From: Rhizodiscina lignyota
Lineage: Eukaryota
Assembly (NCBI GenBank): GCA_010015805.1
Contig: ML978139.1
Coordinates: 186,001-250,000, forward strand
Direction of reading: 5' to 3'
DNA length: 64,000 nt
Position 1 is the first letter of the stretch. The number at the start of each line of letters is the position of its first letter. Made by a program: the position numbers and the translations under genes. The notes under the pieces are model-generated. The model worked only from the letters and a program-made list of their open reading frames with translations, had not been told where the DNA came from and ran no database searches. This document shows positions 42,200 through 47,022 of the stretch, one piece after another.

Positions 42200-44408
42200 T
42201 TAACCGGCTTGACAGTTGTCGACAAAGGAATTTTTCGGCCAGTCGTAACCCGTGTTTTTCCTGCAAAGAAGTGAGTAACTGGACAATAATGATTGAAGAT
42301 TTGAGGGGCGCACCAGAGCGTCACATTGGGATTCGTATACACATCCATGTGGTCCGAGATGTACTGCGTCGTCGGATATCCAGGCGGATCGCAAGTCATC
42401 AATTGGTTGTCTTCGTCTTGGTAGATTCTGATGTAGTCGATCCTCATTGTCGCTGGCATAAGCGGGCCCAAACCGGTGAGATTCAGTGATGCAAAACCAT
42501 TGGACATGCCAAAGTTTAGAACAATCGCCATCGGCTCTTCAGGAATCACACGTTGTCCGACATTGCCATTTGGCCGTATCGCGCGAGCGTCCAGCGTCCA
42601 GGTCTTGTCTTGACCGACATACCAAGTCACATAGCCACTACCACCAGGCTCGTATTCAAAAGCATACGCTTGGTATTCTTTTCCGTCGTACCAGTCGTTA
42701 TTGAGATTCGTAACGACCGATGCGGCTTGCTGGAAGACACCTCCTTGGTAGCCGTTGACATTTGAGATGGTTGGGTCGTAAAGCTCTATGAACTCTTTTC
42801 ACACATCAGCTACAAATCATGAATGGTTTAAGATTATGGTGCTTACCGGGATCAGGCCGCCACATCAGATCAAATGGCGCAAACTGAGCGGATTGAGAGG
42901 CAGATCCAACACCTGCGCCGGCGGGAGGATCCAAAAACCCAACGGACGCTTCGAGCGCGTCAAGTTCGGGAGCGCTCCGCGATTTTCCAGGATTTGGATG
43001 ATCCTCGCCTACACATGTACATGCGGGCAACCTCATCCCAGGCAAAGAACTCAAGCCGTCGCCTTGACTCTGGTTCGCGGTGATGCCATAGTCACAGTCA
43101 TCGTGATAGCTGTATGGCCAAAGGCCATCGGTTGTCGCTGCGTATCCGGGTCGACCCAGATTACCCATGGCCCATACACCAGGCCAGAATCCGATGGTGT
43201 CGCCTCGTCCAGGAAGTGAGACACTAGCTTCCATGTGACCGCCCTTGAAGCACAACATATTCCACGATTGTATCATGCCAGATCGGTAGTTGAGGCCGTG
43301 ATTTTGGAAGGCATCAAATCTGAGGGTCATGACGCCATCCTGCGTAGTTACTGCATCGGGGTCGTACCACTGAAAACTGTGAGCATTGAAACCATATCCG
43401 AAACTTCAGGCAGAATTACCTCCAAATCCTGTGTCACGCCATACCACAGATCCATAGCCTGAAAATACGGGTCATCACCCTCGTAGAACGTCCTCCCGTC
43501 TGTGTTGAACTCGTCTGAGAAGACAAGTGTCTGCTTGGTCCCAGTTCGTGTAGTTCTTGACTTGACAGAGTCGGGCGTTGTTGGGTCGATAAGGCTCTTT
43601 CGGAGGTTCTTCATCAGAGGATACTTGTCGCTGATACAACTAGGATCTTGCGCGCATGTTGTCCCTCCTGGATTGGTATATTGTGATAGCCATGAGCTGT
43701 GGAACGTCAGTATTGGCTCCAAAGAAGCTAAGCGAACGCAAATTAATGGACGTACTAAACTGGGTATCCGACGAAGAGCGCTAATATTCCGAGTATGATC
43801 AGTCCCAATCCTCCAGTATTGACGATTCCTCGCGAAGAAAATATGTCGCACTCGTTCTTGTCCTTCTCGTTCGGGTCTGGATTGTGTAACCAGTCATCTT
43901 TCTCCACGTCCTCAGGGAAAAGCAGAAGACCAGCCGACGGAAGAATGTTGAATTTCTCAGACACAGTCTGAGTGTTCAAGCCTTCATCATCACTACTTCC
44001 CGCCCTTGACGGTGCTCTCGAATCGTCGAATGGCGATACGAATGGCCCCCGACTATCTCGACTGTGCTCAGAGCTCCAACTTGTCCGTCGCGAATCGCCC
44101 CCGTAACCAGACGGTGTAGGGGATCGAGAGTTCATTGGCGATTCGGCATCTCTGTATCTTCTCGAGCGTGATTTCCCCTTGGGCGGAAGTAGGAGCTCTG
44201 TGGAATCGGCCACTTGACTGTTTGTTTGCCCGTACACGCCGTTTCCCCCCGAACCATTTCGGATCGATGGTGTCAACGACCTTTCAGTATTAGACCTTGA
44301 ATAGCCTGGTCGCTGCTCTTGCGAGGTTTGTCTTAGTAGGATATTTTCCGTTCCCGAGTTGAGTCTGATGTGAGGCATCGTGCCTCGCGGTGGTGAAGGA
44401 GATGTCAT
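42200..44408 (-). CDS. KRE6: Beta-1,6-glucan synthesis-associated KRE6/SKN1 (GH16-like) type II membrane protein, about 664 aa
   Basis: Exons 43756-44408, 43420-43696, 42847-43369, 42314-42794, 42200-42260. Motifs EKDDWLHNPDP, a TM segment, LVFSDEFN, DLE|WYDP, GFWPGVW, APELDALE (ExDxxE), IPEEPM. The start could instead be ATG 44378. Confidence 0.92.
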
Positions 44409-45705
44409 TGTGGCGGAGAGAGAACGGGGAAAGCGGAGACACCCGCGAGCCCCTCGTTTCTAAAGGTTGCACTCAATGTCTTGAATATGCTGAAGGGCTC
44501 GTGACGTTTGAGGGGCTCGTTGCCGGTCAATGTCGACGCGGAAGGCTGTACTTGAGGTTCTGCCCCTGGAGACCGCGTTTTGTTTGGGGCGAAGACACCA
44601 ACGCAGCGGCGGCACAGTCGATGAAAGGAAGCCAAAGGTGAACGCTCAATCGAAAGGAAAGACGCCTGCGTGGTGTGAAGGGAGCGCTTCGCGAGTAGAT
44701 TGAAGCACTGCACTGAAGCAACGTTGTTTGGTTGCTGTGCAGCTTCTCGAGGTGCGTCGATGGCGCGTCTGGACGATGCGGTGCTAGCGAGGACGACGGC
44801 ACGCGGTATCGAGGGCGAGAACGAGGAGTCGCGAAGCAGTCGGCGATGAAGGAGCGAAGAGCGGATTGAATGGCGAATTCGAAAATGTTGGTCAAGTCCG
44901 CAGTGCAGCAACTAGTTGCGCGGCGAAGGAACGATTGAGTAGGCCGCAGCAAAGCCACGCCCAGGGGCCAAGCACCCTCAAGGTTCGGGCGGCAAAAGGA
45001 ACCCTCTGCACGGAGGCACCGTGCGCGCACCCATTTTTCATTACGGAGCGCGACTATCTCAAATTCTGCTTCATTGAAAATCCCAGCTGCCTATGAGAGG
45101 CGGTGCGCGACGCTCTGCCATAATCTCCTTTCCTGTGGACGTTTCGTTTCGTCAAACGTCTGCTCCAGCTTCCATAGGCCCTCAGCTAATGCGACGGGCC
45201 AGCCGAACCCTGCCAGGCACCAATTAATCAGGATGCTTTCGATGAGACTTTCATGCGCGGCCAATTACACCCAAGAATATGGATCTGGGTGGATCGTTCG
45301 CCTTCTAGCCTTCTTCTCCCACTTCCAGGTGTGCAGACTGCAAGCACACGGCTGCTTCTCCAAATTATCTTGTATTTTCCATCTCGTTCTTGTTTTTCGG
45401 GACCTGCATATGCACCTGGTTGCCACGGCTGATCGCTCCTGTCTGCGCCTGCAGAGCTTACGCACACCAGCAACGCGCCGACACCACCGACAGGAGTGAG
45501 GGGAGCCATGCTCACTCGCCAGTGTTAGCTTTCCATATCGATGGGGAAAAGAATAGAAGTGCTTCGGAATTCCCTCATCACTTCCGTACCTATTAAGGGT
45601 ATCTATGCATCAATCTTCGTCGAAAATATCCATCTCGAATCAGTCTCACCCAGCCACGCCATCCATGTCCCGACCTCGAACACAGATCGCAAGCATTCTG
45701 GCACC

Positions 45706-46285
45706 TCAAGATTCTACGGACTTGGCTTTCAGCCCCACGATCCTTCCTCCCTTATCGTCTACGCTGACGATGTAGTACTCTGATCGTGTGCCGCCCAGAT
45801 CCACGCGGAAGAAGCCTACATCCCCACTGCCTGCGCCCTTCACTGCATCCACTACCTTCGCGTACTCTCCACGAGGGTCAAAGTCTTTGTGCTTTACGGC
45901 TGTCACATCTCCCTTTGTCTGTATGAGCTTCGCAAGATCATCTGGGCTAGACGTTAGACTTTCACATTCAACCCATCTGTGCCAAGCTCGCATAGTTCAC
46001 GCGTGCCTGGAGTTTTTGATCGGGAACGAAACAATTTCTGACGACAAACATGGCATGGTTCCACATACCTTCCGAAGGCAGACCTTTTCCATCCCACTTC
46101 AGACTAACAGGCTGGAAAGGCTCGTCCGCGTCTGATACATAGTATTCGTCCACTTCCTGTAGCGCCTTTGGCACCTCTGTATTGACCGATTGTGTTCCCA
46201 CAGATTTAGTAGTCGCGGGCTTGCTGCCGCCAAGGTCTTGGTTCGCTTTGTCGAGGAAGGCGGCATAATCTTCGTCGGACCCCAT
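45706..46285 (-). CDS. Small conserved-type fungal protein, nuclease A inhibitor (NuiA)-like, 150 aa (209 aa from upstream ATG 46462)
   Basis: Exons 46069-46285 and 45706-45941 (intron GTATGT...CTAAC...CAG). Segments YVSDADEPFQPVSLKW and FFRV...EYYIV...IVGLKAKSVES* resemble recalled NuiA segments. Confidence 0.75.
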
Positions 46286-47022
46286 GGTGCGGTTGCGATT
46301 GCAAAAGAGCGCCGAAGGAGTGTGTAGGCGTCGGAGGGTTCGAATTTCAGGCGCAGGTGAGAGTGAGGCGCGATGCTGCGAGATGTGCCGGACGTGACAA
46401 GCAAGCGTCCCTAGTTGCAATGATGTAATCCTGAGAGCTCTGATAGTTCTCAGGTGTCGCATGGCATGTGTGAAGGTGCGCTGTCACTCATCCTCCACTC
46501 AGCTCTTAGAATGTTGATCAGACGGAACGCGTTTTGGTGGCGCGTTTCATGACGTACGCGACGCACGTGATTTTTCGGATGGGCTTCAAGATCGACGCCA
46601 AGGACGGAACGCCAAGAGATGGGCTGAAGCCACAGAAAAACTCCCCGAGCGTAAACTCTTGGCTATGGCTTCGAGTCAGCTGCTCAGAAACCAACCTAAT
46701 TAGGATCTCAGGACAGCTACCCCATCATCGTTACCGTCTTTGAGACAGTGTTTATCACGATCTAATCCTCTCGGATGTCTCAGGCGACTATCGTAGGCAC
46801 AAAGCTCAGTATCAAAGAGAAGAGATTTCTTCCAGACGAAAGCTGTGGTAGACGACTTGTCACTACAAGTGGCAGAATTTCGCACATCGTTTTCCATTTT
46901 TGCTCATTTACAACGCGCCTCCTTATACATCTCTCTTCTAATATTGTGAGGGCCTCAGACTTTGTTCATTCAGCGTCTTGTCTCTCTTCCGTCGTATTTA
47001 AGCGTACCGTAGCGCCTCACGC

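Follow-up and report, generated by a model that had tools for sequence, protein, structure and literature searches.

Do filamentous ascomycetes make a protein inhibitor of their own mitochondrial nuclease Nuc1/EndoG, and do they make it from two starts of one gene? The question is raised by a two-exon gene on the minus strand of a 64,000-nucleotide stretch of Rhizodiscina lignyota DNA (assembly GCA_010015805.1, contig ML978139.1, positions 186,001 to 250,000), here called the window, in whose numbering all coordinates are given. The original prediction, made from the letters of this stretch, likened the gene product to NuiA, the inhibitor of the Anabaena nuclease NucA, and proposed that an upstream in-frame ATG adds a mitochondrial-type presequence. 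On balance, comparison of sequences favours a candidate dual-start, cytosolic and mitochondrial inhibitor of the NuiA type, directed at the organism's own Nuc1/EndoG.

A NuiA-type gene and its family

Read directly from the window sequence, the gene comprises 150 codons and a stop after splicing. Exon 1 runs from the core ATG (46069..46285, minus strand, as are all features of the gene; ATG context ACCATGG) and encodes residues 1-72, matching positions 2-78 of the Pfam family PF23151 (NuiA_2) with E 8.8e-26, whereas exon 2 (45706..45941) encodes residues 73-150 and the stop, matching positions 80-154 with E 1.7e-23. Between them lies a phase 1 intron of 127 nt (45942..46068; GTATGT...CTAAC...CCCAG), with its branch site CTAAC at 45957-45953. 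The 150-residue product first proposed, with both peptides quoted from it, is present, and the gene model stands. Its computed mass is 16.0 kDa, against 22.9 kDa for the form begun at the upstream ATG, and the core protein is acidic, with a computed isoelectric point (pI) of 4.7.

The splice sites are supported by relatives. A donor-like site occurs at the same place and in the same phase in 50 of 69 loci, and one relative, seen in a spliced (L024) and an unspliced form (L030), has a 54-nt intron at the position of the window intron. Use of the nearer AG at 45947 as acceptor would shift the frame. A public record of 139 residues whose source label is Rhizodiscina lignyota (P0004) matches the exons with a later acceptor and 11 residues fewer. 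The acceptor originally chosen is preferable because those 11 residues are kept in nearly all homologues, being gapped in at most 10 of the 120 listed; the later acceptor (45911-45941, minus strand), which would remove a conserved helix, was rejected. From this comparison, the 139-residue model likely reflects either mistaken annotation or a minor isoform.

Conservation counts here rest on the best 120 homologues of 299 found (121 for chain ends), and representatives at 50% identity are the 150 listed and used of 801 found. The two exons score 91.3 and 83.9 bits against a PF23151 cut-off of 27 and together cover profile positions 2-154; because each exon passes that cut-off, the likeness to NuiA was already catalogued, so that the original prediction was correct in this respect without being new. 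The window protein is a full member with nothing different in its sequence, and a profile search of the contigs located one PF23151 gene in the genome. By sequence it is a member of NuiA_2, a sister family of PF07924, and not of PF07924 itself, whose cut-off of 22.1 bits is missed by the orthologues P0064 (20.7) and P0014 (20.8) and with which P0004 has no match. Searching the genome with the PF07924 profile gave no match, a result that is uninformative as the controls were likewise silent. Named PF23151 homologues come from filamentous ascomycetes and carry source labels such as hypothetical or uncharacterised, and one Atlas cluster is mostly from Basidiomycota. The named records fall into at least seven classes of Pezizomycotina.

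The structural comparison used a full-length orthologue, P0064, which is 63% identical to the window protein and was modelled from a 94-sequence alignment with a predicted local distance difference test score of 77.5. The top Foldseek match of this model is 2o3b_B, NuiA in the NucA-NuiA crystal (E 1.7e-4; template modelling scores 0.57/0.63). VIA aligned model residues 37-151 with residues 5-135 of the same chain (Z 12.5, 2.5 Å, 110 residues, about 20% of them identical), the next unrelated chain reaching Z 5.3. In an unfiltered search of 48,161 chains without Foldseek, NuiA (1j57) again came first, yet at a Z of only 5.5. A PDB sequence search with the single protein returned no NuiA and three chance matches at E about 0.8, and one with the 94-sequence profile returned no match. 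With both structural methods ranking NuiA first on the orthologue model, the proposed NuiA-like fold of the core is, as modelled, close to certain.

Predicted inhibitory elements and candidate target

Glu24 of NuiA presumably acts as a phosphate mimic, and we take its Asp75/Trp76 loop to be a second contact site on the nuclease. The last residue of NuiA bridges the catalytic metal of the nuclease, according to PMC2790893. For comparison, annotated NuiA genes were taken from four cyanobacterial plasmids, located via their nuclease neighbours (a fifth region had no annotated inhibitor); one of the four sequences equals the PDB sequence except at one residue. Aligned by hhalign, the fungal profile matched these four weakly (probability 37, E 3.6e-4) and, with three bacterial relatives added, at probability 97.5 (E 6e-12). 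Profile alignments with both NuiA sets place Ser23-Glu24 onto Ser51-Asp52 and Thr135 onto Ser150, bearing out the equivalences first suggested, of Asp with Glu24 and of the C-terminal Ser with Thr135.

The S-D-A-D-E-P-F loop (46115..46135) carries Asp52, the counterpart of Glu24 in the profile alignment. Ser51, Asp54, Glu55 and Phe57 are invariant in all 120 listed homologues, and position 52 is acidic throughout, 76 of them having Asp and 44 having Glu. At the other end, the C-terminal V-E-S (45709..45717) brings Ser150, the counterpart of Thr135, into register with the chain end of 2o3b_B. The chain ends on Ser or Thr in 121 of 121 listed homologues and on E-[S/T] in 118, so that the V-E-[S/T] ending is conserved in orthologues as anticipated; among representatives with a locatable last strand (107 of the 150 listed), the end position is fixed in 104. 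A metal-bridging role for Ser150 is predicted from its sequence position alone.

The fungal protein resembles Anabaena NuiA (PF07924; 2O3B chain B, 1J57), the NucA inhibitor, in fold, in its acidic S-[DE] loop, in a terminal V-E-[ST] in register with its own and in acidity (pI 4.4 for NuiA, 4.7 for the fungal core). Unlike NuiA, the gene is eukaryotic, contains an intron, is unlinked to a nuclease gene and has an optional presequence, and the protein has an extra invariant N-terminal helix on a flexible linker and lacks the Asp75/Trp76 loop. The targets differ as well, presumably a mitochondrial homodimer for the fungal protein and a secreted enzyme for NuiA. The fungus-specific helix, D-x2-Y-x2-F-L-x-K-A-N (46238..46276), lies outside the part aligned with NuiA: in the orthologue model it spans residues 4-16, and the NuiA match begins at residue 37. 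Its residues D4, Y7, F10 and L11 are invariant in 120 of 120 listed homologues, and the N-terminal 48 residues have no usable look-alike in the Atlas.

A single PF01223 match in the genome corresponds to an intact Nuc1 of 328 residues that retains DRGH and is 30% identical to NucA; it is basic (pI 8.8), against the pI of 4.7 of the NuiA-type core. An exon-by-exon search, which split genes could escape, gave no PF14040 match in the genome. When prokaryote genomes were searched with the fungal alignment, four loci were recovered, of which one (L084) was set aside. The three kept are all PF07924 members that lie directly after a PF01223 nuclease gene, and these nucleases are homologous to fungal Nuc1 (E 4e-23 to 6e-17); a search of plasmids with the fungal protein gave no match. 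From these sequence relationships, Nuc1 is the probable target of the candidate inhibitor. The locus set aside (OZ255840.1, 5318591-5325165) belongs to a record titled as the bacterium Lapillicoccus. It holds a fungal-type NuiA_2 gene that contains an intron, is extended upstream and has KRE6 as its neighbour; the DNA is probably fungal, and the record mislabelled or contaminated.

Fungal nuclease inhibitors purified in 1976 and 1989 are reportedly small, acidic and heat-stable, of about 22-24 kDa. They are protein inhibitors of Aspergillus oryzae nuclease O (Uozumi 1976) and of the Neurospora crassa endo-exonuclease (Hatahet and Fraser 1989), cited in a 2026 review (PMC13522737, section 6.2), and the original statement that no such regulator had been described in filamentous fungi was wrong. 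The window gene is a candidate for the gene behind these Aspergillus and Neurospora inhibitors, neither gene nor sequence of which was found in full-text literature searches that cover older papers thinly. Drosophila EndoGI is likewise a protein that inhibits a eukaryotic EndoG; its acidic residues block the active site, and it touches the metal shell. As described in PMC2790893, it has two HEAT-repeat domains, is unrelated in fold to NuiA, is mostly nuclear and is known from Drosophila only. The fungal model, in contrast, has the small alpha/beta NuiA fold and no two HEAT-repeat domains. Whether EndoG inhibitors exist in eukaryotes other than Drosophila is a question that PMC2790893 leaves open.

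The upstream start

The upstream in-frame ATG (context GCCATGC) opens a 59-codon presequence-like extension (46286..46462), with no further ATG in any frame between the starts at 46462 and 46285. As claimed, the 59 residues gained include 11 Arg and a single acidic residue, a Glu; they contain no Lys or Asp. For this window alone the arrangement could be due to chance: when the 300 nt upstream are shuffled by dinucleotide, 16% of the shuffles have an in-frame ATG, 30 or more codons up, with the frame open. Among 489 ATG-started, stop-free stretches of 59 codons in the window, 25 have a net charge of at least +10, and five combine at least 11 Arg with at most one acidic residue. The extension stands above chance because it is conserved across relatives and not by virtue of the window copy. 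The PF23151 profile begins at the core Met, and the conserved upstream start lies outside it.

Of 150 relatives, the best 80 metagenome loci were surveyed; four lacked the core-start pattern and eight had less than 300 nt upstream, and the remaining 68 and the window were grouped, at 80% core identity, into 26 lineages. The median length of open frame leading up to the core Met is 98.5 codons, the shifted frames giving 39.5 and 37.5, and over 80 codons the 26 lineages contain 12 stops in frame as against 61 and 55. An ATG at least 30 codons up is present in frame in 21 of 26 lineage representatives (one and one in the shifted frames), or in 47 of 68 loci (three and eight). Within 300 nt such an ATG occurs in 17 of 26 lineages where shuffles lead one to expect 2.7, a count unreached in 100,000 simulations, although, as the lineages are related, this and the other p-values are too small. 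Compared with what the shifted frames of that DNA encode, the extensions also have fewer acidic residues and are more basic, their net charge per residue being 0.136 against 0.055 and 0.044 (p<1e-4, n=21 lineages). The upstream ATG is thus conserved in relatives, a point that the original prediction had marked for checking, and its product is presequence-like in composition, mitochondrial presequences being rich in Arg, Ser, Leu and Thr and poor in acidic residues.

Annotation gives a similar picture. Gene callers place an extension on 18 of 121 listed homologues, compared with two of 120 Nuc1 homologues (p 2e-4). Among the 150 listed representatives, which may favour long members, 80 have an annotated extension, and the core Met is kept in all 80. 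With this retention and a strong start context, the notion that the core Met is a mere internal residue was rejected. Position -3 is a purine in 25 of 26 lineages for the core ATG and in 10 of 21 for the upstream ATG; a strong core ATG with a weaker upstream context agrees with the prediction of leaky scanning. Several close pairs differ by frame-keeping indels in the extension. An R-R-L-H-T motif (46319..46333; R44-T48 region of the long form) resembles what we take to be a mitochondrial processing-type motif. Its general form R-x-[FLY]-[HST]-[STA], which was chosen post hoc, appears in the last 40 codons in seven of 26 lineages and in none and none of the shifted frames. From these comparisons the extension is very probably under selection in the family, and import of the long form into mitochondria is likely.

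In a tree of 130 rows, which was made by a quick method and leaves 59 of its 127 inner forks open, extended forms, as labelled by gene callers, are scattered over the fungal side; seven bacterial rows fall on one side with support 99, which is silent on donor or direction of transfer. Two kinds of extension depart from the common type. Six representatives on one fork (P0272, P0298, P0314, P0328, P0345 and P0357) have long acid-rich extensions, several of which share a repeated motif like W-S-[TF]-S-x-x-[NT]-[TS]-G-E. Six others (P0289, P0307, P0309, P0313, P0322 and P0325; P0307 is labelled Hymenoscyphus fraxineus) have a longer extension in which an initial Met-Gly is followed by a short stretch of hydrophobic residues and a cluster of Lys/Arg, and group, mixed with other rows, on a weakly supported fork (84). 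Such a start presumably resembles a lipid-anchor signal, and these sequences possibly specify a third, membrane-bound form. In L039, L040/L044, L055 and L071 the frame is open for 63-144 codons upstream without an ATG, making them candidates for non-AUG starts.

Around the upstream ATG of the window lies a short out-of-frame reading frame (46450..46491, with ATGs at 46491 and 46467), which could damp the long form, if transcribed. Intron-less contigs of relatives include the upstream ATG in L024 and L046 and end before one in L005 and L034; they were not taken as evidence of transcript starts because L024 continues for 1.5 kb upstream and reaches the adjacent gene. The one sequencing run that matched the window itself gave a DNA-like contig of identical sequence, which may be its source and is silent on splicing and transcript start. 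Some 105 nt before the upstream ATG lies a CACGTG box (46569-46575), and there is a TATAA at 46927.

As to the wider neighbourhood, a SKN1/KRE6 beta-glucan synthesis gene (PF03935) occupies 42809-44459 on the minus strand. Positional orthology is supported because the KRE6 neighbour is also downstream in several related loci; a functional link was rejected in favour of synteny only. Farther upstream on the same strand, short frames at 47026-47446 resemble a small secreted Cys-rich protein with a hydrophobic start and have no Pfam match, and long frames at 48068-49950 give the impression of a fungal transcription-factor body, two pieces of which have no Pfam match.

Rival readings, mechanism and significance

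Several observations weigh against a dual-start inhibitor of Nuc1, and those that concern its target and mode of action leave room for two other readings. The Asp75/Trp76 loop is shortened in the fungal proteins, with no conserved Asp-Trp in the profile alignment; it is also missing in two of the three nuclease-linked bacterial PF07924 members and is therefore not universal in the family. The invariant N-terminal helix, absent from NuiA, may have some other partner. NUC1 lies on another contig than the NuiA_2 gene, and none of 81 fungal loci, with their short flanks, contains a Nuc1 match; linkage of inhibitor and nuclease genes is not expected in a eukaryote. The motif match of the bacterial relatives is circular because the search patterns were built on both motifs, and adjacency alone is independent. 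Inhibition is non-competitive for the A. oryzae inhibitor and mixed for that of Neurospora, according to PMC13522737, kinetics that suit a plug of the active site only where competition is hidden by tight binding. An inhibitor of another nuclease, whether an endogenous enzyme outside PF01223, for instance the autolysis nuclease O if it is distinct from Nuc1, or the foreign NucA/Serratia-type nucleases of competing microbes, would agree with the lack of linkage, with the different second-site loop and with the reported inhibitors of nuclease O and the endo-exonuclease (PMC13522737, as above). That reading is unlikely: the exon-by-exon search described above gave one PF01223 and no PF14040 match, strong single-copy conservation fits a fixed endogenous partner and not an arms race, and the mitochondrial-type extension points to the organelle that houses Nuc1. 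An equally low chance attaches to a repurposed NuiA fold, in which loop and C-terminus bind a metal or a basic non-nuclease partner and the protein serves as a dual-localised adaptor docked by its helix. At low Z, other binding modules (Maf1, Mog1, PsbP and DcrB-like) have this class of fold too, identity to NuiA is low, and the helix missing from NuiA is as invariant as the NuiA motifs; yet the invariant positions of the NuiA-like part include both inhibitory elements, the chain ends at NuiA's residue in nearly all representatives that could be scored, and the nearest bacterial relatives all adjoin a nuclease.

Other difficulties concern the extension. It is broken by 1-nt deletions in L036 and the L009 group, the upstream ATG is lost in the close relative L031, and four of 26 lineages lack it in every member. 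The ratio of nonsynonymous to synonymous change (pN/pS), from seven close pairs picked among those with an intact extension, is 0.59 in the extension and 0.13 in the first 65 codons of the core. The hydrophobic moment of the window extension is 7.1 where shuffles average 7.8 (p 0.59), and across lineages the moment exceeds that of one shifted frame (p 0.002) but not of the other (p 0.27). Some annotated extensions are acid-rich, unlike presequences. Classical presequences normally direct a protein into the matrix. PMC2275078 and PMC13522737, however, locate Nuc1/EndoG at the inner membrane or in the intermembrane space. Such weak constraint, the broken copies in close relatives, the lack of excess amphipathicity in the window copy, the overlapping out-of-frame reading frame and the six representatives with an unrelated Met-Gly-hydrophobic start would suit a Nuc1 inhibitor that exists in the 150-residue cytosolic or nuclear form only, with an upstream frame that is regulatory, non-mitochondrial or unused in this species. 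This too is improbable, marginally more so than the preceding two, as the depletion of stops and the basic, acid-poor composition are specific to the frame and indels in several pairs preserve it. That chance motifs and a chance upstream ATG produced the whole pattern is scarcely credible; the upstream ATG of this window alone has p 0.16 and PDB sequence searches gave no NuiA match, but the Pfam match, the structure match and the cross-lineage statistics are all contrary, and for the gene and its fold an artefact is already refuted by Pfam, homologues and structure match.

For the dual-start inhibitor, then, the following course may be proposed. The acidic loop would mimic the substrate phosphate, and the terminal residue would bridge the catalytic Mg, as in NucA-NuiA; the extra N-terminal helix might, speculatively, provide a second nuclease contact that replaces the Asp75/Trp76 loop. 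The core ATG at 46285 would give the main 150-residue cytosolic and nuclear form, which would neutralise leaked or mis-sorted Nuc1 and set a threshold for Nuc1 release, with a bearing on cell death or viral attenuation. The upstream ATG at 46462, used via leaky scanning or a longer transcript, would yield a 209-residue precursor that would be imported into mitochondria and trimmed, there to protect mitochondrial DNA and RNA, the long form being a dispensable add-on that is occasionally lost. Dual localisation by alternative initiation is documented in Aspergillus for Bol3 (PMC11285713): in A. fumigatus one gene provides mitochondrial and cytosolic/nuclear forms through initiation downstream of the targeting sequence. 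Bol3 is an unrelated BolA-family protein whose localisation is experimental, whereas the fungal NuiA_2 case is drawn from sequence (PMC11285713, the same text). Nuc1 acts in cell death and, in budding yeast, attenuates double-stranded RNA viruses after its release from mitochondria (PMC6697816, available portion), and ectopic cytosolic expression of Nuc1 is reported to kill cells (PMC3971528, available portion).

Full-text searches, thin for subscription and older literature, found no paper on fungal NuiA-like proteins, the upstream start, a tie between NuiA_2 and Nuc1 or a cloned fungal Nuc1 inhibitor; the fold label was already known, and the function and dual start are apparently undescribed. 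What emerges is a conserved candidate inhibitor gene with residue-level predictions, for Asp52 and Ser150, and a two-start design, and a small soluble EndoG inhibitor would be a useful reagent. Tentatively, and with somewhat less than even confidence, it may be suggested that a bacterial-type immunity protein has been turned, in filamentous ascomycetes, into a dual-targeted Nuc1/EndoG inhibitor, that its gene is the one behind the inhibitors of 1976 and 1989, and that the ratio of start-site use tunes autolysis, cell death and the release of an antiviral nuclease. If true, no EndoG inhibitor from outside Drosophila would have been cloned before it, as far as the literature searched can show, and its fold would be unrelated to that of EndoGI.

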